Part shown: piece after piece, positions 6,596 through 43,182 of the stretch
How the letters are laid out: each line of letters starts with the position of its first letter
How positions within the stretch are numbered: position 1 is the first letter of the stretch
Assembly (NCBI GenBank): GCA_964533145.1
Contig: CAZHLG010000002.1
Location: 1-46,805 of the forward strand
Origin: an uncultured Candidatus Saccharibacteria bacterium
GTDB taxonomy: Bacteria; Patescibacteriota; Minisyncoccia; Phycocordibacterales; UBA9973
Length of the DNA stretch: 46,805 nt
Direction: 5' to 3'
Position numbers and translations under genes: made by a program
The notes under the pieces: generated by a model
Told to the model about the DNA's origin: nothing
The model's input: the letters and a program-made list of their open reading frames with translations, nothing else
Databases searched by the model: none

Positions 6596-9500
6596 TTAGT
6601 TAGCGCAACCGAGGATCGCGTTGGCCTTGGCGCGAGTGTACCCATAGATCGTACCCGTCGCGTTCTTAAGGCCGCCCGGAGTCAGGACCTCTGCCTTATA
6701 TTTCGTCTGAAACTGGCGCGTCGCGGCCATCGTCAGCGGTCCGAAGTATCCCGTGACAGGAAGCTTGGTCCCGAGTTCCTGGTTGTAGAATGCCTGCCAC
6801 TGCTTCACCTCATCGATGTTGTTACTCTTCGCAGCAGAGACGAAGTTACTCACGAACGCAGGGCATTTCTTTACGGACTGATCGACGGGAGATACGTATG
6901 TCGTACCGGGCTGGCCGCCGGACTGCGACGGCTTCGCCGCCGCCTGCTGCTGTGCAGCCTGCAAGGCAAGAATGTAGTTGACCGATGTGCGGCGCGTCGT
7001 GGTCGTCGGAGCCGGTGCCGGTGCGTCAACCGGCGTTGCCGTTGCGGTGGACGAGGCGCTGCCCGAGCCGTTGATGTTCACCGCCGTCACGCGAAAGTCG
7101 TAAGAAGAATCATTCGTCAGACCGGTCACGACAGCGCTCACCGCTGCGGACGTACCGTCAGCGAAGGTAGTCCAGACGGAATCGGCGGACAGCTTGTATT
7201 CGATCAGGTAATCGGTGATGGCAGAGCCGCCGCTCGAAGCAGCAGTCCACGAGAGCGTGACCTGCTCGTCGCCAGCCGTTGCGGCAAGGCCGCTCGGCGT
7301 TCCCGGAGTGGTGGACGGCGTTGCCGTTGCGGTGGACGAGGCGCTGCCCGTACCGACGCCGTTCACCGCCGACACGCGGAAGTTGTAGCTTGATCCGTTC
7401 GAAAGACCGGTCACCGTCGTCGAGGTTGATGTCGACGTGCCGTCGGAGAACGTGGTCCAAGAAGAATCGGTCGAGAGTTTGTATTCGACGATGTAATCGG
7501 TGATGGCATCGCCGCCGTCAGAAACAGGCGCGCCCCAGGAGAGTCCGACCTGTCCATTGCCGGCCGTCGCCGAAAGCCCTGTCGGAGCGGACGGGACTGC
7601 AAGCGGCGTATCCGTCGCCGGCGAAGAGGCGGTGCTCGTACCGGCTCCGTTCACTGCATACACGCGGAAATCGTAGGATGAACCGTTGGTAAGCCCGGTC
7701 ACCGTGGCCGAGGTCGAAGTCGACGTGCCGTCGGAGAACGTAGTCCATGAAGAGTCGGCGTGCAGTTTGTATTCGATCACATAGTCGGTGATGGCAGAGC
7801 CGCCGTTAGAGACAGGCGCAGTCCAGGCAAGAGCGACCTGCGAATCGCCGGCAGTCGTACCGAGGCTCGTCGGCGCTCCCGGGGTCGTGCGCGGTGTCGC
7901 CGATTCGGTACTCGAGACCGTTCCGGTGCCGACACCGTTCACGGCGGACACGCGGAAATCGTACGCTGTGCCGTTTGAGAGACTTGTCACTGTCGCACCG
8001 GTCGCCGTCGAGGTGCCATCGGAGAACGTGCTCCAGGATGTCGCCACTGATGTCTTATATTCAACGACGTAGTCAGTGATGGCATCGCCGCCGTCAGAAA
8101 GCGGTCCCAGCCACGTCAGGACCACTTGCGTATTGCCCGGCGTTACGGAAAGGCTGATCGGTTCGTCCGGCGTGGTCGCCGGAGTGCCGGTCGTCGAGCT
8201 TGATCCGCTGCTCGTGCCGATGTCGTTCACGGCATATACGATAAACGTATACTCAACGCCGTTCGTAAGACCGGTGATCGTCGCCGAGGTCGCGACCGAA
8301 ATGCCGTCGGAATATATCGTGAAGTATGTCGCCGGCGCGACCTGATACTGGATGACATAGTCGGTGATCGCGCTGCCGTTGGCTGCGGGAGCCGTCCATG
8401 AGAGCGTGATCTGCATGTTGCCGGACACGGCAGCAAGGCTGGTCGGCGCATCCGGCACCCCGGACGTGGTCGCGTTCGCAGTGCTCGACGCGCTCGATGT
8501 GCCCGAGGCGTTCACTGCGTACACCCGGAAGTTGTATGCTGTGTTGTTCGAAAGCCCCGTCACGATCGCATTGGTCGAAGTCGATGTGCCGTCGGAGAAC
8601 GTGGTCCACGTCGAATCCGTCGAAAGCTTGTACTCAATCACGTAGTCGGTGATCGGCGACCCCCCGTCGGACGGTGCCGTCCAAGAAAGCGATGCCTGCG
8701 CGTTGCCGCCGGTCGCGGAAAGACTGGTCGGTGCGTTCGGAGCGCCGCCCGGCGTCGAATACGCAACGGCGGACGGGTTACTGCGCCCCACGGAGTTCAC
8801 CGCGGAAACGCGGAATGCATACAAGGTTCCGTTGGAAAGACCGGTCACTGTTGCGGATGTCGCCGTCGATGTGCCGTCGGAGAACGTGGTCCAGGAAGTG
8901 GCAGTACCAGTCTTGTACTCAACGATGTAGTCAGAGAGCGAATCGCCGCCATCGACCTCCGGCTCGAGCCACACAAGCGTAGCCTGCGTGCTTGCGGGGG
9001 TGACGGCAAGGCTCGTCGGAGCGTTCGGGTACGTCGTCTCAGTGATTTCCTCGTCGAAGCTCACGCTCCAGTCGTACAGCGCGATGCCGGTACCGTCAGA
9101 CGACGGCGAAGTCGAGGTGTCCGTGTCGCGAATGTTGCCGCCAACGGCCGTAGAGTCAGTCGGATCGCCGCAGGCCGCGTACGCAGCATCGTCCGGGTGG
9201 TACGAGCAGGTCCATGCATACCGAATACGCGGGTCTGTTCCGTCAGGAACGCCGGAGAGCGTGATCGCCACTTTTTTATTGGAATCGGTCAGGTTGACGC
9301 TCGTGATGGAAATCGCACTGCCGCCCGTCTGCGTGAACTCAAAGCCCTTGTTCGTGTGCGAAGCGACGTTCGTCGTATCGACAGCAAGCGTGCCGTACGG
9401 GATATGGTAGTCGACAAGGACGGTCGTACCTGAGCGCGTCACAGACACCGGCATAAGCGGATCCCACGTAGCGCCGTCGAGCAGCACTTTTTTCATGACC

Positions 9501-12370
9501 TTGGCGTATAGTTCGCCCATGTACTTCGAAGCGGTATTCGTAAGGTGGAGGTGGTCGGCGCCGTAGCCAAGCTGGTATTTCGGACCGACAAGGATGACCT
9601 TGCCCGGATTGTTCTTATGCGCGGTGAACTGCGAGACGCCGATGGTTCCGAGCGAATTGGTGTTCATCTGGGACAGGAACAGCGGAATGCTGTCAGACCG
9701 TCCGGTCAAGGCGTTCCAGTCACTCTCGTAATCGCTCTGCAGCTCAGCCATGTCGGCAGCATATGTCGCAGCCGTCGTGCCTGCGATCGCATCCGACTCA
9801 CCGTGCACGATCGTGACGGCATACGGCTGGTAGTATGCGCCGTCTGCCTCGGTCAGCGTCTTAGCGGTCGATGCCTGCGTCTGACCGGTCGTGTAGTAGC
9901 CGCCGGTGCCTCCCTTCTTGATGGACGCGTACGTCTGTCCTCCGCCGGCATGGATGGAGGCGATGATCGGGCGGGCAAGCACGGAGTCGGCAGCACGGAG
10001 GCTGTTCGCCATGCCGGACGCGGGAGATTCGCGCGCGACGAATCCTTCGATGAGCGAAATGAGCGGACCGCTCGTGCCGGCGATAGGGCTGTTTGAAAGG
10101 CTGAGGTTGTTGTACGGCTGCGTCGTCGAAAGCGCAGGGTCCGAGTTGACGCCTTCGGCGAGACTCTGACCCGTCGAGAGGATATGCAGGTATGTAGCAC
10201 CGCCGACGCCGACGGTGATCGCGCTCGAATACGAGCTTGTCCCGACGCCGTTCACGGCAGCGACGCGGAAATTGTAGCCGGTGCCGTTCGTCAGGCCGGT
10301 CACGGTCGCCGCAGCCGTGGTGCTCGTGCCGTCAGAGAACGTGGTATAGGAAGTCGCCGTGAGCGTTTTGTATTGGATCACATAGTCAGTGAGCGCCGAT
10401 CCCCCGTTGGCAGGAGCCGCCCACGTGAGCGACACTTGGCCGCTCGAAGCGGTGCCGGAGAGCGCAGTCGGAGCATTCGGAGCGGTCGGCGTGCTCGACG
10501 GCGTCCGCGAGATCGTGCTCGACGGCGTACCGGCGCCGGCATAGCTCACGCCGGACACCCGAAAATCATACGCCGAGCCGTTGGCAAGACCCGTGACGGT
10601 CATCGTAGTGCCTGTCGCAGCCGTGTGCGGGAACGCGGTCCATGTCGAATCGGCAGAAAGCTTGTACTCAACCAGGTAATCCGTAAGCGAGTAGTCTCCC
10701 TCCAAAAGCGGCGCAGACCACGAAAGCGCGACCTGCGCATATCCGACCGTGCCGGACAGGCTTGTCGGCTGGCCAGGAGCGGCGAGCGTCGTAAACGTCG
10801 AATCCGATCCGCAGCCGGTGCCGGCAGTGTTCACTGCGCACATGCGATAGTGGTACGTAGTCCCCTGCGCGAGGCCGACAGCGCGAGACGTGAAGCTGCC
10901 CGTCGCGAACGAGCCACTCTCGGTCGTGCTCGATCCATAGCTCGTCGTCAGGCCGTACTCGACGTAGCGAGAGGTCGGATCCTCACCGCCAGTGCTTGAG
11001 ATCGTGCCGGAAAGCGTGACCGCGCCGTACGAATAGCGGGTCGCCGTGCCCGTGCTGACCGTCGGCGCGACCGGACAGGTGCTCGTAGTGAACGAAGTGT
11101 CCGAACCGTAGCCGGTACCGGCGGTGTTCGTCGCATACGCACGGTAATGATAGCCGGTGTTGCACGTAAGACCCGTGACATTGATGGCGAACGGCGTCGC
11201 AGCGAAGCTGCCGGTCGCGAAGATCGTCTGGCCGTAGCTCACAGACGTGCCATACTCGAAACCGCGAGTGGTCGGCGTCGCGTTGCCTGTCGAACTGATC
11301 GTACCGTTAAGCGTGACGGTCGTCGTGGTGATCGAACTTGCGCTCTGCGTCGTGACTGTCGGAGCGACTGCCGGCGGCGTGCCCGACGTCCAGATGCCCG
11401 TGTTGGTGCCGCCGACGACCATGTATGCGCCGTCGCTCGACATGGCAGCCTTGCGCCAGGTAGCCGTGCCCGGAGCAGATTCGGTCGACCAGCTCACGCC
11501 GGAGTTGGTCGAGGTGCGGACGATGGCCGTCGAGACAGCGAGGAGCTTCGAACCGTCACTCGACATCGCGACCGACTGCCACAAGCCGGCGCCGCCAGTG
11601 CCCGCATCGGCTTGGTCGGTCCACGTCGAACCGCTGTTCGAAGATGTGGAAAGCGGGCCGCCGAAGGAAAGCGTCGAGGCAAGTTTTGAGCCATCGCTCG
11701 ATGACGCGACACTCGTATAGAAGCCGGAGGTAGAGCCGGTAAGCGCGCCCCAGTTCGCACCCGTGTCGGTCGAACGATAGATGTAATCGCCGAACATGCC
11801 GACAATGATCTTTGAACAGTCGCTCGAACAGGCGATCGCGTTCGGAGTGGTACTGCCGAGGCCGGACGGATTGCTCCAGGTCGAGCCGCTGTCGGTGGAT
11901 TTCCAGAAACCGACCTTGCCGCCGCCGTTCGCGATGGCAACCATCGTCGTGCCGTCGTCGGACATATCGACGCCGGTCCACTGACCGGTGCCGATGGTCG
12001 CGGCCGTCGCCCACGTAGTGCCTGAGTTTCCCGAATACCACAGCCAGCCATCGAGCTCGCTCACGAGCATTTTGGTACCGTCAGAAGAAATAGCCGCATG
12101 CTTCCATCGGCGCACCCCAGCACCCGTCAGCGCATTCCAAGTAGCGCCTGCATCCGGGGAAAGATACATGCTGGCAGACGTGTCGGTGTTGTCGACGGCG
12201 AGGATCTTTCCGCAGTCGCTCGAACAAGCGATGCCGTACCAGGTGCGCGTTCCGGACGTCGCACTGCGATCTGTCCATGTCGCAGCCGATACGAAAAAGA
12301 TGACCGCGAGGGTCGCCGAAAGAGCAGCTACTGCTCCGACAAGCGGTTTCTTGATCCGTGACCACGGCAT
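6596..12370 (-). CDS. Giant (1924 aa) cell-surface protein: N-terminal anchor/signal, BNR/Asp-box propeller, 2 Fn3-like FEYG domains, 2 Fn3, SGNH/SASA-like esterase domain, 7 Fn3, peptidoglycan-binding-like C-terminus
   Basis: Hydrophobic N-terminus KKPLVGAVAALSATLAVIFFV. Six Asp-box motifs (SPDAGATW, SGNSGTTW, STDSGSTW, STDTGANW, SSNSGSTW, STNSGVSW). Nine Fn3 modules of about 95 aa (xLSWxAPxxDGGSxITDYxIEYK...FRVxAVN). Central HILSTGQSLAEG / IVHGESDA / GADHLHL resembles the GQSN / QGE / DxxH motifs of sialate O-acetylesterase-type SGNH hydrolases. C-terminal VKQWQAFYNQELGTKLPVTGYFGPLTMAATRQFQ resembles PG_binding_1. Confidence 0.9.
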   Translation of the reverse strand: MPWSRIKKPLVGAVAALSATLAVIFFVSAATWTDRSATSGTRTWYGIACSSDCGKILAVDNTDTSASMYLSPDAGATWNALTGAGVRRWKHAAISSDGTKMLVSELDGWLWYSGNSGTTWATAATIGTGQWTGVDMSDDGTTMVAIANGGGKVGFWKSTDSGSTWSNPSGLGSTTPNAIACSSDCSKIIVGMFGDYIYRSTDTGANWGALTGSTSGFYTSVASSSDGSKLASTLSFGGPLSTSSNSGSTWTDQADAGTGGAGLWQSVAMSSDGSKLLAVSTAIVRTSTNSGVSWSTESAPGTATWRKAAMSSDGAYMVVGGTNTGIWTSGTPPAVAPTVTTQSASSITTTTVTLNGTISSTGNATPTTRGFEYGTSVSYGQTIFATGSFAATPFAINVTGLTCNTGYHYRAYATNTAGTGYGSDTSFTTSTCPVAPTVSTGTATRYSYGAVTLSGTISSTGGEDPTSRYVEYGLTTSYGSSTTESGSFATGSFTSRAVGLAQGTTYHYRMCAVNTAGTGCGSDSTFTTLAAPGQPTSLSGTVGYAQVALSWSAPLLEGDYSLTDYLVEYKLSADSTWTAFPHTAATGTTMTVTGLANGSAYDFRVSGVSYAGAGTPSSTISRTPSSTPTAPNAPTALSGTASSGQVSLTWAAPANGGSALTDYVIQYKTLTATSYTTFSDGTSTTAAATVTGLTNGTGYNFRVAAVNGVGTSSYSSAITVGVGGATYLHILSTGQSLAEGVNSDPALSTTQPYNNLSLSNSPIAGTSGPLISLIEGFVARESPASGMANSLRAADSVLARPIIASIHAGGGQTYASIKKGGTGGYYTTGQTQASTAKTLTEADGAYYQPYAVTIVHGESDAIAGTTAATYAADMAELQSDYESDWNALTGRSDSIPLFLSQMNTNSLGTIGVSQFTAHKNNPGKVILVGPKYQLGYGADHLHLTNTASKYMGELYAKVMKKVLLDGATWDPLMPVSVTRSGTTVLVDYHIPYGTLAVDTTNVASHTNKGFEFTQTGGSAISITSVNLTDSNKKVAITLSGVPDGTDPRIRYAWTCSYHPDDAAYAACGDPTDSTAVGGNIRDTDTSTSPSSDGTGIALYDWSVSFDEEITETTYPNAPTSLAVTPASTQATLVWLEPEVDGGDSLSDYIVEYKTGTATSWTTFSDGTSTATSATVTGLSNGTLYAFRVSAVNSVGRSNPSAVAYSTPGGAPNAPTSLSATGGNAQASLSWTAPSDGGSPITDYVIEYKLSTDSTWTTFSDGTSTSTNAIVTGLSNNTAYNFRVYAVNASGTSSASSTANATTSGVPDAPTSLAAVSGNMQITLSWTAPAANGSAITDYVIQYQVAPATYFTIYSDGISVATSATITGLTNGVEYTFIVYAVNDIGTSSGSSSTTGTPATTPDEPISLSVTPGNTQVVLTWLGPLSDGGDAITDYVVEYKTSVATSWSTFSDGTSTATGATVTSLSNGTAYDFRVSAVNGVGTGTVSSTESATPRTTPGAPTSLGTTAGDSQVALAWTAPVSNGGSAITDYVIEYKLHADSSWTTFSDGTSTSTSATVTGLTNGSSYDFRVYAVNGAGTSTASSPATDTPLAVPSAPTGLSATAGNGQVGLSWGAPVSDGGDAITDYIVEYKLSTDSSWTTFSDGTSTSTSTTVTGLSNGSSYNFRVSAVNGVGTGSASSTATATPSTTPGTPSGLAATAGDEQVTLSWTAASSGGSAITDYLIEYKLSADSVWTTFADGTSAAVSAVVTGLTNDSSYDFRVTAVNINGSGSASSTATATPVDAPAPAPTTTTRRTSVNYILALQAAQQQAAAKPSQSGGQPGTTYVSPVDQSVKKCPAFVSNFVSAAKSNNIDEVKQWQAFYNQELGTKLPVTGYFGPLTMAATRQFQTKYKAEVLTPGGLKNATGTIYGYTRAKANAILGCAN
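7031..9031 (-). repeat. Seven tandem, diverged Fn3-coding repeats (about 279-288 bp each) inside the giant surface-protein gene
   Basis: Module lengths are 96, 95, 95, 96, 96, 96 and 93 aa, counted from the translation. The periodicity also shows as four consecutive 89-94-aa antisense ORFs (7788, 8076, 8364, 8649 +). Confidence 0.85.
10199..10780 (-). repeat. Two further tandem Fn3-coding repeats upstream of the esterase-like domain
   Basis: Modules APGQPTSLSG...SRTPSS (96 aa) and TPTAPNAPTA...TVGVGG (98 aa), with the same consensus as the 7031-9031 array. Confidence 0.8.
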
Positions 12371-12451
12371 ATCTGAGTACTATAGTACGCGAAGCCCTCA
12401 ACGATGTCTACTTGACCGCAGTGGATTTCCGCGGCTGAAGCACAATACATG

Positions 12452-12525
12452 TCCGCCCGCCTGGACTCGAACCAGGGACCCTCGAGGTATAAGCTCGATG
12501 CTACTACCAACTGAGCTACGGGCGG
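12452..12525 (-). tRNA. tRNA-Ile, anticodon UAU (reads AUA); no encoded CCA
   Basis: Hand-folded 74-nt cloverleaf: acceptor CCGCCCG/CGGGCGG, TA, D-arm GCTC-AGTTGGTAG-TAGC, A26, anticodon stem TCGAG/CTCGA with loop CTTATAC (U33, anticodon TAT, A37), variable GGGTC, T-arm CCTGG-TTCGAGT-CCAGG, discriminator A. Confidence 0.85.
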
Positions 12526-21824: not shown

Positions 21825-22061
21825 TTACAAACCTGCCAGTTTCTCAGACAGCTTATGCGCATTGCCATGACTCACGAGTCCCCGGTACGATTGCACGGTC
21901 TCGGTTTTTCCATTCGCCGCAACGATGCGCTTGAGCATGCGACGCTTGGTCGCGGTACGCATGACTCTATATTTCGGAAAATGCACCCAACCGAGAAAGT
22001 CCACTCCGGAACTGAGCCGCCGGATGAAGACTTTGTCCGGATGCAGTGAAAGCCGCAGGAG
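21825..22061 (-). CDS. C-terminal (thumb) segment of the DGR reverse transcriptase, in the same frame immediately after the in-frame TAG at 22062-22064
   Basis: Hand translation: LLRLSLHPDKVFIRRLSSGVDFLGWVHFPKYRVMRTATKRRMLKRIVAANGKTETVQSYRGLVSHGNAHKLSEKLAGL-TAA. The LxLHPxK...GxDFLGW pattern is the conserved RT region that follows YADD. It is missing from the ORF track because the longest start-codon-initiated piece is under 60 aa. Confidence 0.75.
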   Translation of the reverse strand, partial: LLRLSLHPDKVFIRRLSSGVDFLGWVHFPKYRVMRTATKRRMLKRIVAANGKTETVQSYRGLVSHGNAHKLSEKLAGL

Positions 22062-22928
22062 CTAAGTAAGAAAATCGGAGATATCCGGCAGCATGGCTTC
22101 AAGGCAGGCGCGATCTTCATTCAGAATGACGAAATCGTCAGCATACCGAATATACCGCCGCGCATTCAACTTGCGCTTAATGAATTGGTCGAAGCGGTTC
22201 ATGTAGACATTCACGAGCAATTGGCTCGTCAGATTCCCGAGCGGCAGACCGACGCCAGGCTTCCCGGCAGTATGAAAGCTGTCTATCACCTGCCCGAACA
22301 GCCAAAGAACATCGGGTTCTTGTATGTGTGTCGCCAAAATAGCTTTAAGGACGGCATGATCGATGCTCGCGAAGAATTTCCGGATATCGCATTTCAAGAC
22401 CCAGCATGTCCGTGTATCGTTCTTCGACACTTCCTTTGAAAAACGCTCGAAACGACGCAGAGCCTTGTGCGTCCCTTTTCCGATGCGGCAGGAATAGGAG
22501 TCGTATATGAACAGTCTGTCGAAGCGCGAGTACAAAATGCGATAGACGGCATGGTGAACCAGACGATCGCGCACTGTCGCCTTATGGATATCGCGTGGCT
22601 TAGGGTCGTTGATGCGGAATGCGGCATACCCTTGATGCACATATGTTTTAGTTTTAAGTTCTTTCCGCAAAGCCGCGATGTTGTCCGACAGGCGCAGAGA
22701 AAATTCGCCGACGTCTTTCCGCTTCTTCTTTCCCACAATGAACTCCCGCCAGCTTTGAAGCAGGTTTTCAAAAGATGCTATACTTGCGAGATCATGGCAA
22801 AACCGCTTACTCCTCTCTCTCTCTCGAAAACGCAAGCGTAGTCTTGAGAACAAAAGAGGTGTTCGCACTGTGGTCGAGTAATATCGTTCCTCATATGCCG
22901 CGGACAAGCCGGTACACGACCGGCGCAA
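22062..22928 (-). CDS. DGR-type reverse transcriptase, fingers/palm portion, ending at a premature in-frame TAG
   Basis: FENLLQSWREFIVGKKKRKDV, NDPKPRDIHKATVRDRLVHHAVY, DSYSCRIGKGTHKAL, LKCDIRKFFASIDH, GLPLGNLTSQLLVNVYM (DGR-specific xGxxxSQ), IRYADDFVIL. The real start may be TTG 22835 (LRFRERE...), which gives a combined RT of about 336 aa and no overlap with avd. Confidence 0.85.
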   Translation of the reverse strand: MRRSCTGLSAAYEERYYSTTVRTPLLFSRLRLRFRERERSKRFCHDLASIASFENLLQSWREFIVGKKKRKDVGEFSLRLSDNIAALRKELKTKTYVHQGYAAFRINDPKPRDIHKATVRDRLVHHAVYRILYSRFDRLFIYDSYSCRIGKGTHKALRRFERFSKEVSKNDTRTCWVLKCDIRKFFASIDHAVLKAILATHIQEPDVLWLFGQVIDSFHTAGKPGVGLPLGNLTSQLLVNVYMNRFDQFIKRKLNARRYIRYADDFVILNEDRACLEAMLPDISDFLT

Positions 22929-23200
22929 GGATAGAGACGCATCTGCTCGACTTGCTTGAGATCATATACAAAGCATATTACGCATCGCTCGAAAACAAAA
23001 ACGTTCTCATTGTCGCAGCCATATCCAAAGCCGACCTGGTGAAATATTTCCTGCAGATCGCCTGGGAGAACAAGCTCATGAAGGACAAGCCCTACGGTGA
23101 GATATCGGAGAAAATACAAGAGGTCGGCAGAATACTCGGGGGATGGAAAAACAATGTCGCCGCCAAGCTTTCCCGCGCAAAGCAAAGCCCCGCCGGATAG
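22775..23200 (+). CDS. avd: DGR accessory variability determinant (Avd, four-helix-bundle protein), opposite in orientation to RT/TR/target
   Basis: ...FALWSSNIVPHMPRTSRYTTGARIETHLLDLLEIIYKAY...KPYGEISEKIQEVGRILGGWKNNVAAKL. The C-terminal motif nearly matches BPP-1 bAvd. The likely true start is TTG 22844 or GTG 22859 (about 113-118 aa). Confidence 0.85.
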   Translation: MLYLRDHGKTAYSSLSLENASVVLRTKEVFALWSSNIVPHMPRTSRYTTGARIETHLLDLLEIIYKAYYASLENKNVLIVAAISKADLVKYFLQIAWENKLMKDKPYGEISEKIQEVGRILGGWKNNVAAKLSRAKQSPAG

Positions 23201-23220
23201 GCGAGGCTTCCATATGCGGT

Positions 23221-23331
23221 TTCGAAGGAAAGAAGGATATTGCCCTCGTTCCAGTCATTGCCGTTGTCGAAATCGTTGGCATTGAAGTTCCACTCGTCGT
23301 CGTTCCAGTACACGTTCACGGCGACTCGTTC
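23221..23331 (-). repeat. DGR template repeat (TR)
   Basis: 111 bp, aligning without gaps to 23640-23750 (offset +419). Rich in AAC/AAT codons in the VR frame (NVYWNDDEWNFNANDFDNGNDWNEGN). The 3' block ATATCCTTCTTTCCTTCG is invariant between TR and VR (IMH-like). Confidence 0.9.
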
Positions 23332-23565
23332 CGTGCGGCGGGCCATCTGTGCCACTGGATGATGATGGTGCATCAATTCCTGCATACGCATGCCGCATCT
23401 TGAATGCGCCAGCGCGCCGCACCTACTGCATATGTTTGAAGAGAATGGCGGAGCACTGCTCTTGTCCAAGAACATTCCGGGACAATTCTGAACGCTTCGC
23501 ATCCTTGACGCTCGCCTCCAAGACTTTCGGCCGGTAGATCTTGTAACGTCAAGATTCAGTATATG

Positions 23566-23601
23566 CAAAAAGGACCCAAGATTCAAAGAATCTCAGGTCC
23601 T
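23566..23601 (-). terminator. Intrinsic terminator after the DGR target gene (strand-specific: two G:U pairs form only in the minus-strand RNA)
   Basis: Minus strand: AGGACCUGAGAUUC-UUU-GAAUCUUGGGUCCU followed by UUUUU, beginning 24 nt after the TAG stop. Confidence 0.7.
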
Positions 23602-23624
23602 ATGATTTTAGCCCGATTGCTCAG

Positions 23625-24284
23625 CTACTTTGCAGCAGTAGCGAAGGAAAGAAGGATATAGCCCCCGCGCCAGTCACCGCCGTCGTCGAAAGCGTCGGCA
23701 CCGAAGCGCCACCCGCCGTCGTCCCAGAACACGCGCACGGCGACTCGTACGCTACCAGGCAGTTCAACATGACACAAGTACCATTTCTCCTTGCGTATCT
23801 CATACCCAAGAACTTGTTTGCCAAGCTCGGGATTGAAGATGAGCATAAACCAAAGAAGGAAAAAGGTATCGATATCCATAAAGCCCGGATTGCCCGCCTC
23901 GCTTTGGATAGTGCTGTCATTCATGTTGCGTGGCAATCTGAACTCAGACACCGCTCCGAGGTCGGTGCGAATGGCGACGGTATGCTTCAAGTACGGAGCA
24001 ACGCACCATGCCTTGAACTGGTCGCCGAAATACAACCGGCGGTCGCCTTTTTCGGCACGATGACGGAATATCTGCTCGACCACGAAACCGTTGATCAGGT
24101 TATAGGAGAGCCGGCATCCGTTGTTTATCCATTTGATGAACTCTTCCTGGGTTATCCCCTTTCCGAGCTGATCGATGGCATTCTGGATCTGCGCGCCGTC
24201 TATCGTTTCGATGGCGCTGTCTGTGGTGGTGTTCAAGCCACCGATGAGGTTACGGAACTGACCGCCTGATGCAGCTTTTCCCAT
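23625..24284 (-). CDS. DGR target (variable) protein, 219 aa, no recognisable signal peptide; fold not recognised
   Basis: The ORF carries the VR in its last ~40 codons. It has its own promoter (24355-24383) and terminator. Confidence 0.85.
   Translation of the reverse strand: MGKAASGGQFRNLIGGLNTTTDSAIETIDGAQIQNAIDQLGKGITQEEFIKWINNGCRLSYNLINGFVVEQIFRHRAEKGDRRLYFGDQFKAWCVAPYLKHTVAIRTDLGAVSEFRLPRNMNDSTIQSEAGNPGFMDIDTFFLLWFMLIFNPELGKQVLGYEIRKEKWYLCHVELPGSVRVAVRVFWDDGGWRFGADAFDDGGDWRGGYILLSFATAAK
23640..23750 (-). repeat. DGR variable repeat (VR) at the 3' end of the target gene
   Basis: Differs from TR at 22 positions, all corresponding to A in TR (minus strand), for example AAC->CGC/GAC, AAT->GGT/TAT, GAG->GGG, TAC->TTC. 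Encodes VAVRVFWDDGGWRFGADAFDDGGDWRGGYILLSF. Ends 12 nt before the stop codon. Confidence 0.9.
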
Positions 24285-24354
24285 AAACGCGTGCGTTCAG
24301 TACTCCTTTCGGAACCCTGTCCCCGGCTTTGTTATGAATGAATGTATCGGTTAC

Positions 24355-24383
24355 ATTATATCACCTTTCGATATATAAGTCAA
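24355..24383 (-). promoter_or_regulatory. Sigma70-type promoter for the DGR target gene
   Basis: Minus strand: TTGACT (24383-24378), 17 nt, TATAAT (24360-24355), about 70 nt upstream of ATG 24284. Confidence 0.6.
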
Positions 24384-24384
24384 G

Positions 24385-27132
24385 CTACTGCGCGGCGCGG
24401 TAACGGGCCATGATCTCCTCTTCCACGTCGGCGCGGTCGCGGCCGAATTTGAGGTACGAAAGTTCTTTGATCTTCTCCACCACGTCCGCATTGCCGCGCG
24501 GCGGGAACGGCGTATGGCTGTTGAACGGCTTCACAGGCATGCCGCCGGCGAGCATCTTCACGTAACAGTTGAGGTTCTCGAGCTTGAGGATATCCTGCGC
24601 GGAGAAGGACGGTTCGAGCTGCTTGGCGAAGACTTCTGCGTTCTCCGGCGAGACGCGATGGATTGCCATCGAGCCGACGTTGCCGAAGACGGCGTTGCGG
24701 ATTCCCTCTTCGAGCTGCTCCACGTACTGATGCGCGACCGTGAGCGAGAGGCGGTATTTGCGGGCCTCGGACAGGATCGAAGCGATCGACGGCGTGGTGA
24801 CGTTCTGGAATTCGTCGATGTACAGATAAAAGTCGTTGAGCGGCTGCCCGAACATATCCACACGGCTGAGCGCGGCCATCTGGATCTTGCCGACCAGAAT
24901 GAGGCCGATCAGGTTGGCATTGATGTCCCCGAGCCTGCCCTTGGCGAGATTGACGAGCAGGATCTTCTTCTCGTCCATGATCTTGCGGAAATTGAATACG
25001 GATTCCTGCTGAGCGATGACCGGACGCATGATGTCGTTCGAGACGAAGACGTCGAACTTGTTGGTCACGTACGGCACGAAGTTGGCGAGCGACTGCTCGC
25101 CCGTGGTCTTCTCGGCGTTCTCCCAGAACTGCTTGATGATCGGATTCTTGCAGCGCGAGAGTTTGAGGTCGCGGAACGATTTGTCGGCGAGCACGCGGCC
25201 GATCTCGAGCAGCGTCGAGCCCGAGGCCGGGTCTTCCATGACGAGCAGGGCCGAGTTGCGGAAATACTGCTCGAAAGCCGGGCCGCCGGCCGTCTTCATG
25301 TCGAAGAGCTTGTTGAAGATGGCGAGCAGTTCGTTGACCACGAACGTCTTCTGTTCCGGGAAGCGCTCGTCATATTCGAGCATGTTCAGGCCCATCGGGC
25401 GCGCAGTGTACGCGGGATCGAAATAAATCACATCGTCGAGACGCTCACGCGGGATATTGGCCAGGATATCCTGGATGTCGGTGCCGTGCGGATCGATGAA
25501 GCAGCAGCCGTCGCCGTTCTTGATGTCCTGGATGATCATGTTCTTCAGGAACACGGTCTTACCGGTGCCGGTCTGGCCGATGACGTAGAAATGGCGCATG
25601 CGGTCCTCGCGCGACATGCGGACCTCCTTGCGCTCGCCGCGGTACTCGTTGTAGCCGAGCAGGATGCCATCCTGCTTCGATACGAGCTCCTGCGGCAGCG
25701 GCGCGACGGCGGCCTGGGCCTGCTTGAGCTGGGAGATTTTTGAAATGCCCGACGGAAAATGAAACACGGTCGAAAGCTCCTTGAGATTGAGCGGCAGGGC
25801 TTGGCTTTCGGAGAAAAGCCGGTACGAGAACTCGCGCAGGAACTCATGCAGCGCCGCGCCTTCGGCGCGGCGCCACGCGAACCCGTTCCGCCCGGCTTCC
25901 GTGAACTGATTGAACGATGATTCGATCTCGCCGAGTATGGCCTTCGAGCGCTCTCGCGTCGCGCCGGAAGCCACGATGCGGATATTCGCGGCGACAAGCG
26001 TGCTCGTGAGCTTTTCGGAGATATGCGCGACGGCCTTTTCGTTCGGCTTGCCATCGTTCAAAGCCTTTTGCGGCGTCCCGGTAAACAGCTCGGCTCCCGC
26101 CTTGAGAAACTCGAGTCCGATCTGCCGGCCCGTGCTCTGCGCCGTTTTGACCGAATAGCCGGCCTTCACGTTGTCGAGCACGCGCTTGATGCGGTGCGTC
26201 AGCGCGTCGTCTTCCGGACGGAGCACGAACTGCACGGCCGCACCCTCCCCTGTGGCTTTGAGCTTGGAGAACGTGCTGAGGATCACGTTCATCGGATCGT
26301 GATCGAACGATTCATAGGTCTTGATCGGAAACACTTCGGCGTCAGTGAACACTGCGGACGACGCCGCCGCGTCGTCCGCGCCTTCGGCGAAGATATTGTA
26401 GTCGTCGGTCACTTCGGCGAGCTTGGCATCCGGCTGCACGGCAAGGAGCTGCTTTTCGAACAAGTCGGTCTTGCCGTCAGGAACGGCCGCATACACCACA
26501 AACTGCTCGCCCTGGTTCGCAAGCGCGATCTCAAGCGTGAAATGACTCTTGTCGTAATTTTCGCGCCCGTATCCGACGGAATGCATGCCGGCATAGAACT
26601 GCTCCATCATCGAAAGCAGTTCTTTGAGGCTTTTTTCTTTGCCGGGCTCTGTCTCGGGAAGCGCGACCTCGAACAGCCGCATCTTGAGCGCCTTATAGAG
26701 CGGACTCGACTCCTTGAGGCCAGGCAGACTTCCTGCCGTCTGGAGATACTGCACGAGGAAGCGATGAAAATCGTCGTCCACATGCGGATTGTGCATGCTC
26801 TCGGCAAGATTCATGGCGTTCTTGATGCCGCGCTCGAGCAGCACGCCGAGCAGCTCTTCCATGACGGTATCGTGCGGCTCAGGCGAAAGGCGCAGCACGA
26901 AGCCCTCCTGTTCGGCGGTCTCCATGCGCTGCGCCGGATGCAGCGCCGACTCGGTCGGCATCTCCCGATATGCGCGGATGGTCTCATGGGCAAGCTGCTC
27001 CCGGACAGCTTCGGTCGCGCCGCCGCCGAGCTCGCGCTCTTTGTGCGCAAGCTGCTCGCGCAGATACGCGACCTCCTCCTCCGCGGAAGAGAACTGCGGC
27101 ATCGGTTTTGCTTCGAACGATTCCATACGCAT
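24385..27132 (-). CDS. VirD4/TraD/TraG-like (type IV coupling protein-like) P-loop ATPase with a ~480-aa N-terminal region of unknown function
   Basis: 915 aa; Walker A GQTGTGKT; Walker B YLYIDEFQNV; LSEARKYRLSLTVAHQYVEQL (TraG/TraD C-terminal signature). No TM segments are obvious. Stop codon TAG. Confidence 0.75.
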   Translation of the reverse strand: MRMESFEAKPMPQFSSAEEEVAYLREQLAHKERELGGGATEAVREQLAHETIRAYREMPTESALHPAQRMETAEQEGFVLRLSPEPHDTVMEELLGVLLERGIKNAMNLAESMHNPHVDDDFHRFLVQYLQTAGSLPGLKESSPLYKALKMRLFEVALPETEPGKEKSLKELLSMMEQFYAGMHSVGYGRENYDKSHFTLEIALANQGEQFVVYAAVPDGKTDLFEKQLLAVQPDAKLAEVTDDYNIFAEGADDAAASSAVFTDAEVFPIKTYESFDHDPMNVILSTFSKLKATGEGAAVQFVLRPEDDALTHRIKRVLDNVKAGYSVKTAQSTGRQIGLEFLKAGAELFTGTPQKALNDGKPNEKAVAHISEKLTSTLVAANIRIVASGATRERSKAILGEIESSFNQFTEAGRNGFAWRRAEGAALHEFLREFSYRLFSESQALPLNLKELSTVFHFPSGISKISQLKQAQAAVAPLPQELVSKQDGILLGYNEYRGERKEVRMSREDRMRHFYVIGQTGTGKTVFLKNMIIQDIKNGDGCCFIDPHGTDIQDILANIPRERLDDVIYFDPAYTARPMGLNMLEYDERFPEQKTFVVNELLAIFNKLFDMKTAGGPAFEQYFRNSALLVMEDPASGSTLLEIGRVLADKSFRDLKLSRCKNPIIKQFWENAEKTTGEQSLANFVPYVTNKFDVFVSNDIMRPVIAQQESVFNFRKIMDEKKILLVNLAKGRLGDINANLIGLILVGKIQMAALSRVDMFGQPLNDFYLYIDEFQNVTTPSIASILSEARKYRLSLTVAHQYVEQLEEGIRNAVFGNVGSMAIHRVSPENAEVFAKQLEPSFSAQDILKLENLNCYVKMLAGGMPVKPFNSHTPFPPRGNADVVEKIKELSYLKFGRDRADVEEEIMARYRAAQ

Positions 27133-37446: not shown

Positions 37447-38010
37447 CTAGCGTAGAAATTTCTCGAGGGCACGGCGTGTCTCTTCGACCGCCGTCTCAAG
37501 GTCGATGTTATGCACCACGACGTCTGCCTTGTCGGCATAGGTCATCTCTTCCGGGAAACGATCGATACGGACCTGGATCGACTCCGGCGAATCAGTGGCG
37601 CGAGCCTTGAGGCGCGAGATGATGATCTCCGTCGGCGCCGACACGAAGATCATGAGCGCGCGCTCGCCGAACTGCTGCTTGAGATTCCACGCACCCTTCA
37701 CGTCGATGTCGAAGACCGGCGTCTTGCCGAGCGCAGCGAGGCGGTCGAACTCGCGACGGAGCGTGCCGTAATACCGGCCCGGATACACCTCTTCCCACTC
37801 GACGAATTCGCCCGCGGCGGCCATCTCTTTGAATTGCCCGGTCGAGACAAAGTGATATTCAACACCGTCCCGCTCCGTGCCGCGCGGTTCGCGGTTCGTC
37901 GCGCTGATCGAAAACGCAAGCTCGGGAAAAAGCGCCATCATGCGCCTGGTGATGGTCGTCTTGCCCGCACCCGACGGCGCGCAGAAGATCACGAGCTTGG
38001 GTTCCTGCAT
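37447..38010 (-). CDS. gmk: Guanylate kinase
   Basis: Internal ATG 38010: MQEPKLVIFCAPSGAGKTTI...SATNREPRGTERDGVEYHFV... Confidence 0.9.
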   Translation of the reverse strand: MQEPKLVIFCAPSGAGKTTITRRMMALFPELAFSISATNREPRGTERDGVEYHFVSTGQFKEMAAAGEFVEWEEVYPGRYYGTLRREFDRLAALGKTPVFDIDVKGAWNLKQQFGERALMIFVSAPTEIIISRLKARATDSPESIQVRIDRFPEEMTYADKADVVVHNIDLETAVEETRRALEKFLR

Positions 38011-38089
38011 ATGGACACACACTACCATATGCATCCAAAAAAATCCCGGACAAAAAACCGCACCCTCAAGGATGCGGTTACTGCTGCAA

Positions 38090-38881
38090 TCACACATGCG
38101 GCACATGGAAATGTTCGAACGGCACGTGCTGGTTTTGCCACCGATTCGTCAATTCTTCAAAAAATTGACCTTGCGGTGCAAGTGTAGCCAGAGCGGCTTT
38201 AAACTGCTCGGGATGCGGTCCGTCTGGAAGATTCTTCCATGCATCGAGCTGCTTATTCCACAATAGTTTATTCAGGCTGTTTATTGCGCTGCTATGCACT
38301 CGAACAATTTTTTCTGAGTAATACAGGACCAATACAGTGTCGAGAAACGCGACTATTTCTTTGAGCTGCAGCAAGGTATCTGTACCGAAACCGGCAGGAT
38401 GTGAAGTTATTCTCGCCATGAGCTGGTCATATGCGGGAGATTCACAAAACCCCCGAACACGGTGGCCAATCAGCACGTACAGTTCCTTGCGAGCAGTGGA
38501 ACATTCCTTACTGCTGCCTGATATGACTTCAATGAATTCCGCAAATTCTTTACGGGAGGACTCCGCGAACACCGTCCGTTTGTCTTGAGAAAAACGTTCT
38601 AACTCGGCGACCACATCTTCGGAGAGTTGCCTGAATGCCAGGGAGCGCCGATATCGAGCATAGTCCGTGAGCAGATACAAACGGCTGGAAAGAACCATAC
38701 TCTTCCACAAAAAGAAACTGGCGTTGTTCACCGCGTCGCCAAAAGAATTGAGCGGACGATTTTTCTGCAGCTGCGACCGAGCTACGCTACGCTTATACCA
38801 ATACGTGATCGAGGCTATGATGAGTATCCCAAGGACCATTCCGGCCCATGACCCTGTGAAGAACAGTATGAAATTTTCCAT
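38090..38881 (-). CDS. Hypothetical N-terminally membrane-anchored protein, lower G+C than neighbours
   Basis: ORF 38090..38914; ATG 38881 gives MENFILFFTGSWAGMVLGILIIASITYWY (a single TM), then a ~235-aa helical domain with no recognised family. Sampled 60-nt lines are about 38-48% G+C, versus over 60% in flanking genes. Confidence 0.6.
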   Translation of the reverse strand: MENFILFFTGSWAGMVLGILIIASITYWYKRSVARSQLQKNRPLNSFGDAVNNASFFLWKSMVLSSRLYLLTDYARYRRSLAFRQLSEDVVAELERFSQDKRTVFAESSRKEFAEFIEVISGSSKECSTARKELYVLIGHRVRGFCESPAYDQLMARITSHPAGFGTDTLLQLKEIVAFLDTVLVLYYSEKIVRVHSSAINSLNKLLWNKQLDAWKNLPDGPHPEQFKAALATLAPQGQFFEELTNRWQNQHVPFEHFHVPHV

Positions 38882-38931
38882 ATGTACGTGTTTTTGTTTG
38901 CACGAAAAATACACTATTTTTTCCCATACGG

Positions 38932-38962
38932 CAAGAGCCGCGCCCGAAGGGCGCGGCTCTTG
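38932..38962. terminator. GC-rich hairpin just downstream of rplE
   Basis: CAAGAGCCGCGCCC-GAA-GGGCGCGGCTCTTG (14-bp stem). The T-rich tract lies only on the plus-strand side, so function as the rplE terminator is uncertain. Confidence 0.4.
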
Positions 38963-38974
38963 TGTTTTCGTTCT

Positions 38975-39529
38975 TTATTTCTTGTCGCCGTCTGCCGACT
39001 TGAACGGCACGCCGAGGAGTTCGAAGAATGCCTGACCTTCGGCCTGAGTCTTGGCCGAGGAGACGAGCGTCACCGCGAGGCCGAAGACATCCTTGATGTC
39101 TTCATCCGCGGTCTCCGGGAAGATCGTGTGCTCCTTGATGCCGAGCGTGAGGTTGCCGATGGCGTCCACCGCGGTGCGGTTGAAGCCGCGGAAGTCCTTC
39201 GTGCGCGGAACTGCGATGTTGAAGAACTTCTCGAGGAAGGCGTACATGCGCGGACCCCGGAGCGTGACCGTGAGGCCGACCGGGTCGCCCTGGCGGATCT
39301 TGAACGAGGCGATCGACTGCTTCGCGCCGCGGAGCGCCGGCTTCTGGCCGGTGATCTTGGTGAGGCGGTCGGCAACGAGCTCGTTGCGCTTCGGGTCGCG
39401 CTTCATGGCGCCGCCCGTGCCGGACGAGACGTTGACCTTGAGCAGGCGCGGTGCGGCCATCACGTTCTGGTAGCCGAACTTTCCCTTGAGGGTCTCGTAC
39501 GATTTCTGTGCTTTTTCTTTGACGGTCAT
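38975..39529 (-). CDS. rplE: 50S ribosomal protein L5
   Basis: 184 aa; NVMAAPRLLKVNVSSGTG... Confidence 0.95.
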   Translation of the reverse strand: MTVKEKAQKSYETLKGKFGYQNVMAAPRLLKVNVSSGTGGAMKRDPKRNELVADRLTKITGQKPALRGAKQSIASFKIRQGDPVGLTVTLRGPRMYAFLEKFFNIAVPRTKDFRGFNRTAVDAIGNLTLGIKEHTIFPETADEDIKDVFGLAVTLVSSAKTQAEGQAFFELLGVPFKSADGDKK

Positions 39530-41676: not shown

Positions 41677-42135
41677 TTACTCCTTGGTTTCTTTGGCTGC
41701 CTTCTTGGTAACGGCCTTCTTCGCAGCCGGCTTTTTTGCGGCAGCCTTTTTGGCAGCCGGAGCCTTGACGGGCTCTGCCTTCTCGGCAGCAGCCTTCGGA
41801 GCCTTCTTCCCTGCCTTCTCAGCAAGAATGATGGTCACATGGCTGGCATGCTTGTGGATCGAAGACGCACGGCCGAAGGCGCGCGGCATGTGGCGCTTGA
41901 GCACGATGCCCTTGTCCACCATGACCTCTTTGACGATGAGGTTCTCGGCGTCAGCACCCGCGACTTTCGCGTTTGCGACAGCGGAAGCAAGCAGCTTCTC
42001 CATCGGGAGAGCGGCGCGCTTGGCGAGGTGCTTGAGCTCGAGCTCTGCGCGAGCGACCTGCTTGCCCTTGATGAGGCCGGCAACGAGGCGGACCTTGCGG
42101 GGGGCTTGTCTGTAGTTCTTGAGATAGGCTTTCAT
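41677..42135 (-). CDS. rplV: 50S ribosomal protein L22, with a Lys/Ala-rich C-terminal extension
   Basis: 152 aa; the core through HVTIILAEK, then KKAPKAAAEKAEPVKAPAAKKAAAKKPAAKKAVTKKAAKETKE. Confidence 0.95.
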   Translation of the reverse strand: MKAYLKNYRQAPRKVRLVAGLIKGKQVARAELELKHLAKRAALPMEKLLASAVANAKVAGADAENLIVKEVMVDKGIVLKRHMPRAFGRASSIHKHASHVTIILAEKAGKKAPKAAAEKAEPVKAPAAKKAAAKKPAAKKAVTKKAAKETKE

Positions 42136-42162
42136 GGCTTCAAAATAGGGCGCTGGGAGGGA

Positions 42163-42507
42163 TTATTTCTTCTTGGCGTCGCCGGAGTCCTTGGCTGCCT
42201 TGGCAGCTGCGATCTCGCTTTCTTTCTGCTTCTGCTCGAGCTCCTTCTGCATCTTACCGCCGTGCTTGCGGAAGGTGCGAGTCGGGGAAAACTCGCCGAG
42301 GCGGTGGCCGACCATGTCTTCGGTAACGATGACCTCGACATGTGTTTTGCCGTTGTGCACACCAAAAGTGAACCCGACCATTTCCGGGGCAATCTGGCAG
42401 GCACGGCTCCATGTCTTGATCATGGGAGTCTTGGACGGCTCTTTGCCCTCAATCTTCTTCATGAGGCGCTCGTCGAGATAGGGACCTTTTTTGAGTGATC
42501 GTGTCAT
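42163..42507 (-). CDS. rpsS: 30S ribosomal protein S19, with a charged C-terminal extension
   Basis: Internal ATG 42507: [20 protein letters not shown]...[17 protein letters not shown], then a [27 protein letters not shown] tail. Confidence 0.95.
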
Positions 42508-42546
42508 ACGGTAATTAAAAAGCTGGCGAGATAGCCAACGCAAGAC

Positions 42547-42574
42547 ATACTAGCAAAAACACGGAGAATGTCAA
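42547..42574 (-). promoter_or_regulatory. Sigma70-type promoter directly upstream of rpsS
   Basis: Minus strand: TTGACA (42574-42569), 16 nt, TAGTAT (42552-42547), about 40 nt before the rpsS ATG. Confidence 0.6.
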
Positions 42575-42588
42575 ATATCGGCCGCGGC

Positions 42589-42621
42589 CCGGGCAGGGCG
42601 GGCTTCGCCCGCCCTGCCCGG
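42589..42621. other. Perfect 15-bp GC-rich hairpin
   Basis: CCGGGCAGGGCGGGC-TTC-GCCCGCCCTGCCCGG. It lies between the rpsS promoter and the promoter of the antisense ORF; there is no U-tract on either side. Confidence 0.6.
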
Positions 42622-42624
42622 ACA

Positions 42625-42652
42625 TTGCCAATACCCCACACTGTGGTAATGT
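42625..42652 (+). promoter_or_regulatory. Sigma70-type promoter for plus-strand ORF 42676..43182
   Basis: TTGCCA (42625-42630), 16 nt, TAATGT (42647-42652), 23 nt before the ATG. Confidence 0.5.
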
Positions 42653-42675
42653 GACTGCAAACAAAATTTAAAACT

Positions 42676-43182
42676 ATGAGCACAGTAACAGCGAAAGAAA
42701 CGTTTCTCCGGTTTGCAAAACCGCTCGACAATGCGATCAGCAGTATCGAAGAAAAAAATGCTATCGCAGAGTTCGGGATCGGAAATTACGCTGAAATGAC
42801 AGGAATATTCTTTGATGGACGCTACCAGAAAGTCTTTTTCTCAAAATCCGACACAGAAATCATCGAATCACTCTTCTGTCACATCAGTCACGCAATGAAA
42901 TTGCCCGGGACAGGAAGTAGTCCGCGCGAAAAAGTTATCCGGGAAATAAAAGAGAAGTACAAGAAAATTCTTAGCGCATACGACCTGGTTACGAACAATC
43001 TAAACAGATCTGTCCGAACAACGATGTGGAACCATCAGTACGAGATCTACCGCACAAGCCTCGAGCACGATCTTAAAGACCTCATGGCAAAATCAGATCT
43101 TGCGGACACGTACAAGAAAGCTGTGCAAGCGATCGTACGATACGAGGTCGGTTACTACGTAAACGATGTTGATGGAGACTAA
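42676..43182 (+). CDS. Hypothetical 168-aa protein encoded antisense to the S10 operon, lower G+C
   Basis: Clean ATG ORF with protein-like composition (MSTVTAKETFLRFAKPLDNAISSIEEKNAIAEFG...YEVGYYVNDVDGD); own promoter and terminator. Sampled lines are about 40-48% G+C. No family recognised. Confidence 0.65.
   Translation: MSTVTAKETFLRFAKPLDNAISSIEEKNAIAEFGIGNYAEMTGIFFDGRYQKVFFSKSDTEIIESLFCHISHAMKLPGTGSSPREKVIREIKEKYKKILSAYDLVTNNLNRSVRTTMWNHQYEIYRTSLEHDLKDLMAKSDLADTYKKAVQAIVRYEVGYYVNDVDGD

Follow-up and report, generated by a model that had tools for sequence, protein, structure and literature searches.

A chromosomal diversity-generating retroelement of the Patescibacteria type, probably switched off, with a structured RNA beside its template repeat

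In the diversity-generating retroelement (DGR) of the Bordetella phage BPP-1, the parts stand in the order mtd-avd-TR-brt, where TR is the template repeat and brt encodes the reverse transcriptase (RT). In the Bordetella ribonucleoprotein, the RNA segment called Sp carries, in order, a primer strand (nucleotides 47–56, pairing with TR 117–129), the priming A56, a two-nucleotide linker, a 'Stop' duplex (59–70) formed with avd sequence just upstream of TR, a stem-loop (71–78), adenosines, a thumb ring and a bRT-binding stem-loop, and an Avd-binding stem-loop is found just 3′ of TR (bioRxiv 10.1101/2023.10.23.563531). Among bacteria of the candidate phyla radiation (CPR), the architecture known as B3, TR-(avd)-RT, accounts for 90% of the DGR set and is found almost nowhere else (Wu et al. 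2018, PMC5758913); the targets of these elements usually have no recognisable domains, and novel versions of the fold seen in C-type lectins (CLec) are suspected among them (Roux et al. 2021, PMC8144416). Here we describe a DGR on a 46,805-nucleotide stretch of DNA from an uncultured Candidatus Saccharibacteria bacterium (assembly GCA_964533145.1, contig CAZHLG010000002.1, positions 1–46,805; hereafter the window), the parts of which lie between positions 21,825 and 24,383 (Table 1).

The reading that we favor, with a probability of roughly 0.85, is that the window carries a chromosomal DGR of the Patescibacteria/CPR type whose anatomy is present but which has been switched off in this genome. 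Like the BPP-1 element, it has an RT of the DGR clade with conserved template- and dNTP-contacting residues, an Avd, adenine-only changes between TR and the variable repeat (VR) that fall in AAY codons (Y, pyrimidine), a target gene that ends in VR, a candidate boundary stretch that does not vary, and, beyond VR, a hairpin. Unlike in BPP-1, avd is inverted and sits between TR and RT; the stretch resembling the initiation of mutagenic homing (IMH) site is pyrimidine-rich rather than GC-rich; the target is small, has neither a recognisable signal nor a tail-fibre context, and does not match Mtd significantly; a structured RNA is conserved on the 5′ side of TR, where Bordetella has Sp on the 3′ side, and a terminator-like hairpin comes directly after TR; and the element is chromosomal, whereas that of BPP-1 is phage-borne. 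With the CPR DGRs (B3, PMC5758913; clade 2 of Roux et al. 2021, PMC8144416) it shares the TR-(avd)-RT order and orientation and a target without a recognisable transmembrane or conserved domain, and its closest cassettes are those of Saccharibacteria and Nomurabacteria metagenome-assembled genomes, in which the RT is 65–69% identical and the gene order the same. As a DGR the element adds little, since CPR bacteria are already known to be rich in DGRs that have this gene order and diversify unannotated proteins, and RTs are often broken. What merits further work is the organisation of its RNA and its unannotated target family.

Along the minus strand the parts follow one another as a target gene with a C-terminal VR, a terminator-like hairpin, a TR RNA of ~375 nucleotides that is probably separate, avd (on the opposite strand) and RT. 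In the mechanism that we propose by homology with the Bordetella phage DGR, a complex of RT and Avd would copy the TR RNA into cDNA, misincorporating opposite adenines, and the cDNA would replace VR, rewriting ~14 codons, mostly AAY, within the last ~40 residues of a small binding protein. The 5′ domain of the TR RNA may carry the priming and RT-binding elements. In this genome an in-frame TAG would truncate RT before motifs 6–7 and the thumb, such that the VR of the window would be the frozen product of an earlier round of homing.

Table 1. Features of the retroelement and their coordinates in the window
Feature	Coordinates	Strand	Basis
Reverse transcriptase gene, interrupted by an in-frame TAG; start TTG 22835 or 22928	21825..22835	(-)	bRT, phrog_1423 and RVT_1 matches
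In-frame TAG in RT, equivalent to bRT E240 of 328	22062..22064	(-)	Reading frame and alignment; also in L010 and L011
avd (accessory variability determinant)	22775..23200	(+), opposite to all other parts	PF22296, NF033474, phrog_3206
Hairpin GCCUCGCC-UAUCC-GGCGGGGC followed by UUUGCUUUG; terminator-like; avd stop codon in loop	23178..23207	(-)	Seven-locus comparison
Site directly 3′ of TR, ACCGCA (ACUGNA in relatives)	23215..23220	(-)	Pairs with candidate primer strand
Template repeat (TR)	23221..23331	(-)	Gapless TR/VR alignment and mismatch statistics
Structured 5′ domain of TR RNA, several helices	23333..23550	(-)	RNAalifold covariation, nine loci
5′ strand of 12-bp duplex, partner 23333–23344 ending just upstream of TR; 'cPRT-Stop'-like	23411..23422	(-)	Covariation
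Candidate primer strand UGCAGU (23430–23425) inside invariant UAUNCAGUAGGUG, then invariant A 23424 and G 23423	23424..23430	(-)	Pairs with 23215–23220
Promoter-like site for TR RNA, TTGAAT-17-TATACT	23558..23586	(-)	Consensus; -10 conserved across loci
Hairpin and T-run, 24 nt past target stop; terminator-like, candidate DGR target-site hairpin	23571..23601	(-)	Conserved inner stem
Target gene, 219 aa; N-terminal helical part, C-terminal alpha/beta domain (predicted); last ~40 residues VR	23625..24284	(-)	ORF; model
Variable repeat (VR), 3′ end of target ORF	23640..23750	(-)	TR/VR alignment; second natural allele
17-nt stretch identical in TR and VR, TATCCTTCTTTCCTTCG; IMH-like 3′ boundary of mutagenesis	23642..23658	(-)	TR/VR and L012 comparison
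Promoter-like site upstream of target, TTGACT-17-TATAAT with TG	24355..24383	(-)	11/12 consensus matches, consensus match alone

Repeats, reverse transcriptase and Avd

An earlier, sequence-only reading of this DNA had proposed a gapless 111-bp match between TR and VR at an offset of +419, with 22 mismatches that all fall at adenines of the minus-strand TR, no change at any C, G or T, and a TR built of AAC/AAT-rich codons. Pairwise alignment of 23221–23331 with 23640–23750 bore this out, down to the individual mismatch positions. All 22 of the mismatches among the 111 positions lie at a plus-strand T, and so at an adenine when TR is read on the minus strand (A>G at 13 positions, A>C at five and A>T at four), and none of the 79 non-A positions of TR is altered in VR; with 32 A among 111 positions, such a distribution has a chance probability of P = 6.8e-16. 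The changed adenines occupy codon position 1 or 2 in 23 of 26 cases (counted over codons 23755–23625), and ten AAY (Asn) codons are rewritten within VR, which spans codons 179–215 of the 219-amino-acid target. Each of seven independent cassettes of the target family likewise has 12–20 TR-to-VR mismatches, all at A. Further VR copies, which the same reading had raised as something to look for, were absent from both strands of the 46.8-kb window.

The last 18 bp of the repeat had been called invariant and IMH-like. The stretch is IMH-like but 17 bp long, because the A at 23659 is mutated in L012, which carries a second natural VR allele (L-numbers, L001–L029, denote loci from other assemblies or contigs). 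At the other end of the mismatch list, the outermost pair (23221–23222; TR AA versus VR CT) is identical in both VR alleles, and the aligned relatives have VR CT or TT opposite TR AA at the equivalent positions, with the TR itself reading AT in two loci. Because these mismatches recur in relatives and are unchanged between alleles, they look like a fixed IMH/IMH* boundary difference and not like free mutagenesis. A candidate IMH/IMH* pair would comprise the 17-nt stretch, which is not GC-rich, and the fixed AA/CT difference, with a hairpin (23601–23571) downstream of VR.

The RT has the Bordetella phage bRT (8ub7) as its best solved relative, at 2e-39, with retron and group II RTs at 1.3e-17 or weaker. 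It also matches Pfam RVT_1 and, at 4.7e-104, phrog_1423, the latter match (residues 36–364) running across the TAG. Both the NCBIfam group II RT/maturase model TIGR04416 (138.9 bits, cutoff 300) and the retron St85 model (51.6, cutoff 235) score below their cutoffs. The template- or dNTP-contacting residues of bRT (K29, F66, R74, I76, G182 and Q187) are kept, as is the catalytic DD, and bRT I181 is replaced by Leu, such that motif 4 ([LIV]GxxxSQ) reads LGNLTSQ, the motif from which the gene had been assigned to the DGR-type RTs. The neighbouring Avd, proposed earlier from the motif EVGRILGGW, does contain that motif and matches Avd families, with bAvd PF22296 at 1.5e-14 and 54.8 bits (cutoff 40), phrog_3206, and NF033474 at 6.4e-17 and 61.8 bits, which is below the 80-bit cutoff of that model. 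What had not been remarked on is its orientation: avd lies on the plus strand between TR and RT, and TR, RT and target are on the minus strand. The same TR-(avd)-RT layout is found in L006, L007, L009–L011, L015, L016, L026 and L027.

The RT reading frame is interrupted. On the minus strand it runs ISDFLT-TAG-LLRLSLHPDKV and continues to a stop at 21825. In L009, which apart from this site shares 99.95% identity with the window, TCG CGC stands in place of TAG CTC, so that the codon after the TAG position specifies Arg in L009, as it does in the relative L006, and Leu in the window. The RTs of relatives align end to end and are unbroken, with the ORF intact in L009, L006, L015 and L016. Because L009 and L006 share the Arg and the relatives' RTs are unbroken, sequence comparison identifies the window allele as a derived nonsense allele, the product of which would be short by about a quarter, and the lost part should contain motifs 6–7 and the thumb. 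Sequencing error was rejected as the source of the TAG, which is present in three independent assemblies (window, L010 and L011), as was recoding, because seven of the 14 window genes that we checked end in TAG, among them those for the target, Avd and SecY, and every other long ORF is uninterrupted. The earlier description of a complete DGR is therefore accurate with respect to anatomy (target with VR, TR, Avd and DGR-clade RT) but not with respect to function, the RT being cut at 22062–22064. In this genome the RT is probably inactive and the element off.

At its 5′ end the RT gene offers a single ATG, GTG or TTG in the 17 codons before the first conserved motif, SIASFENLL, namely TTG 22835. 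Gene callers place the start at a GTG at 22736, which already belongs to the conserved part. RT and avd face each other with their 5′ ends overlapping across a (GA)n/(CT)n tract (22736–22928 minus, 22775–22900 plus), and short out-of-frame ATG mini-ORFs recur in L015 and L016.

A structured RNA 5′ of the template repeat

The spacer of ~290 nt from the target stop to TR is strikingly conserved although the targets themselves are only about 50% identical. When nine loci (the window at 23333–23564, L001, L006, L015, L016, L022, L026, L027 and L029) were folded together with RNAalifold, the spacer yielded 51 pairs in nine helices. Of the cells at these pairs, 94.8% were paired, compared with 41–49% when the partners were slid by 1–3 columns; compensatory changes were present in 28 pairs, compared with 4–10 after sliding; and none of 500 shuffles reached the observed pairing and covariation. 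As judged from this covariation, the VR–TR spacer is a structured RNA. Searching it against Rfam returned no family and sub-threshold terminator-like matches alone.

With a promoter-like site upstream and a terminator-like hairpin after TR, the TR RNA looks like a separate transcription unit of ~375 nt. A -10 box resembling TATACT/TATAAT is present at the promoter position in nearly all aligned loci (TATGAT in L001), and the hairpin 3′ of TR is found in all seven loci compared, with a different stem sequence in each and a U-run after it in most. In the hairpin that follows the target gene (23571–23601), the inner GATTC-TTT-GAATC is kept and the outer stem changes compensatorily across loci. 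Over 15 loci, its UUU loop and inner stem are kept (GAUUC/GAAUC or the compensatory GUUUC/GAAAC) and the outer stem is freely variable. A role as a -35 element would be inadequate on its own to explain this conservation, because the hairpin is kept even where a 16-nt insertion separates it from the -10 box. A 164-amino-acid ORF (23092–23586, minus strand) that crosses TR and the spacer was treated as spurious, because it prolongs the frame of TR into sequence that evolves in the manner of paired RNA; gene callers annotate an 84-amino-acid piece of it in L009–L011, most likely as an artefact of TR copying coding sequence.

By analogy with Bordetella, candidates for the cis-priming elements could all be placed with covariation support, but with the primer/Stop module 5′ of TR. 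In the full-length alignment, RNAalifold pairs U-N-C-A-G-U (23430–23425) with A-C-U-G-N′-A (23220–23215), directly 3′ of TR, and N and N′ covary among seven loci (G-C, A-U and U-A), giving one covarying position in 6 bp. In the window, the TR-flanking site has ACCG and not ACUG, creating an A·C mismatch that is offset in the centroid fold by CAUAUGC:GCAUAUG pairing. The 12-bp 'Stop'-like duplex comes next, with compensatory changes at seven of its 12 pairs and 97.6% of cells paired, followed by a short stem-loop, a single-stranded stretch (A-rich in L022, L026 and L027) and a further stem-loop. This order of primer strand, A (here A23424), two-nucleotide linker, duplex, short stem-loop, single strand and stem-loop is that of Bordetella Sp 47–139, and the hairpin at 23178–23207 stands at the position of the Avd-binding stem-loop.

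Because the order of elements matches Bordetella Sp but the module lies 5′ of TR, we tentatively suggest, at somewhat short of even odds, that the TR of this lineage, and possibly of B3 elements generally, resides in an autonomous non-coding RNA, circularly permuted with respect to that of the Bordetella DGR. If so, the arrangement would account for the priming of cDNA although avd lies inverted directly downstream of TR, and for VR always having T at 23640 whatever the TR base there. A permuted Bordetella priming module would also offer a mechanism, open to test, for the predominant DGR architecture of CPR bacteria. Among the papers that we searched, none describes a permuted or 5′-located DGR priming RNA.

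The spacer might instead be a structured RNA without any permuted priming module, acting as a stabilising or regulatory 5′ leader or as a platform on which RT or Avd docks. Synthesis would then be target-primed, or would start, as it does in Bordetella, from the region 3′ of TR that is antisense to avd. To this alternative we give close to an even chance. The helices are well supported, yet the primer duplex consists of 6 bp with a single covarying position, and the fold of the window RNA as a single sequence is not unusually stable (z = -1.1). Moreover, Avd-binding stem-loops and 'Stop' duplexes formed with upstream or downstream sequence have been described in DGRs including those of CPR bacteria, in a comparison that used 40 nt upstream and 100 nt downstream of TR (Handa et al., bioRxiv 10.1101/2023.10.23.563531). 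The alternative is harder to square with the terminator-like hairpin and U-run that follow TR in most of the seven loci, with the pairing of the sequence directly upstream of TR to an upstream and not a downstream strand (seven pairs covarying), and with the agreement in element order with Sp 47–139.

Variable-repeat alleles and the state of the element

The target protein of L012, P0013, is the second member of the target's 90% cluster; its scaffold outside VR is identical to that of the window protein, and 14 residues differ within VR. In DNA, L012 and the window disagree at 19 positions, of which 18 fall in 23659–23745, inside VR, and the L012 VR differs from the window TR by 19 A>N changes and one T>G. 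The L012 contig has the same upstream gene and breaks directly after VR. On this sequence evidence a single scaffold occurs in nature with no fewer than two products of homing, so homing did occur in the population. Recent homing, proposed earlier from the lack of any non-A drift, is thus reasonable for the lineage and the population, as the second allele attests. For this genome it is not supported: four assemblies, drawn from at least three samples, have the window VR without change, the RT nonsense allele is present in three of these assemblies, and this copy is probably frozen. The near-identical cassettes that differ by the RT nonsense codon (window, L010 and L011 versus L009) would form a natural on/off pair, beside which the second VR allele exists.

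Several considerations weigh against an element that is off. A second RT elsewhere in the genome, or low-level read-through of the TAG, could keep it working. L009, which has an intact RT, has the same VR as the nonsense carriers, such that RT status and VR stasis are not yet linked. The look-up of identical VRs was by exact protein identity, which is blind to other alleles, and the 90% cluster alone revealed one; VR variation is known here from assemblies, in which two alleles were seen.

On a rival reading the element would be fully active in this genome: read-through, a suppressor or a second, trans-acting RT would make up for the TAG, and VR would still be turning over. The second VR allele does come from the same sample accession series as the TAG-carrying L010, and the RT sequence downstream of the TAG has no further decay. 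However, the L012 contig ends at VR and does not cover the RT allele, and TAG serves as an ordinary stop codon in several genes, those for the target, Avd and SecY among them. In addition, the codon that follows the TAG is altered too, to Leu where L009 and L006 have Arg, all three TAG-carrying assemblies have one VR in common, and the 46.8-kb window contains no second RT or VR. Full activity therefore seems unlikely to us, and we retain the reading of an intact anatomy with a disabled RT. That TR is instead a decaying duplicate of the gene's 3′ end, with RT and Avd as unrelated group II intron or retron neighbours, is effectively refuted: a repeat does exist and the group II RT/maturase model does give 138.9 bits, but that score is far under its cutoff, as is the retron score, bRT leads the other solved homologues by 22 orders of magnitude, the mismatches are confined to A at P = 6.8e-16, and six other cassettes have the same A-only pattern.

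The strain comparison also revealed an abrupt change in divergence in L010. Positions 15–264 of that locus (window 24454–24703), within the last 320 nt of the upstream ATPase gene, have 15 substitutions relative to the window, all at third codon positions, and the 2.4-kb DGR cassette has one. The pattern suggests that the cassette has recently recombined, or been transferred, between strains that had diverged.

The target family and its genomic setting

No match to the target protein was found in Pfam, NCBIfam, PHROGs or PDB sequences, or by a profile search of the PDB, and Pfam had no match to any of 98 members of the target family. Relatives numbered 12 by word-indexed search and 208 cluster representatives by exhaustive profile search, mostly of 150–230 amino acids, and across the family the C-terminal 40 residues vary at A-templated positions. 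A first structural model, built with 12 sequences, was too poor (predicted local distance difference test, pLDDT, 62) and was not used for fold assignment. The AlphaFold model built with 98 sequences reached a pLDDT of 88.6, with values above 95 across much of residues 85–205. In this model the N-terminal part is predicted to be helical, and VR would make up the final four strands, with their loops, in a compact alpha/beta domain, a placement that resembles the C-terminal strands and loops of the CLec variable proteins Mtd, TvpA, TaqVP and AvpA.

Unlike those proteins, the target has no significant sequence or structural match to a solved CLec protein. Foldseek searches of the model against PDB and BFVD returned nothing at E <= 1e-3, and the top PDB match, the trimeric CLec domain of Bd2740, was non-significant (E = 0.2, probability 0.51, template-modelling scores 0.27/0.44). 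The Bd2740 domain was likened to Mtd by its authors. The target may have a divergent CLec fold. The VR motif of the target, W..(D/G)EW.F.A..FD.G..W..G..FL, appears unlike the CLec VR consensus. As an unannotated family of ~200 clusters that has been repeatedly diversified, these targets bear on whether all DGR scaffolds are C-type lectin folds.

The genes flanking the element in the window are housekeeping in character (NDK, a beta-CASP RNase, a type IV secretion system (T4SS)-coupling-like ATPase, FtsH, RecG, SecY and L6), which indicates that the element is chromosomal. The cassette itself has a G+C content of 50–54%, compared with about 60% around it. In the window the ~2.5-kb target-TR-avd-RT cassette lies between the T4SS-coupling-like ATPase and NDK genes; in other genomes it sits between different housekeeping genes, inside the S7–EF-G operon in L006, beside S2 in L008 and beside a Met aminopeptidase gene in L025. 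Because it is found among different housekeeping genes in different genomes, the cassette appears to move as a unit.

Some members of the target family look decayed or orphaned on sequence grounds (L001–L004, L005 and L028). In L001 the hairpin, the 5′ RNA domain and a TR remnant of ~70 nt are kept (6669–7110), and this locus has no avd or RT within 6 kb and adjoins type IV pilus genes (T2SSE, T2SSF and pilin-like ORFs). L005 keeps part of the spacer alone, and L028 has no cassette. L001 and L005 hinted at a connection of the target with type IV pilus genes, which was rejected as not general, because the cassette sits in many different housekeeping contexts.

Elsewhere in the window, G+C also dips at 38001–39000 (0.48) and 42001–43000 (0.52), compared with about 0.60. 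The sole tRNA gene is a tRNA-Ile with anticodon TAT (12451–12525, minus strand). Also on the minus strand, 6596–12370 encodes a 1924-amino-acid protein in which fibronectin type III repeats number nine or more and a SASA-like esterase segment is present; this giant protein is presumably located at the surface.

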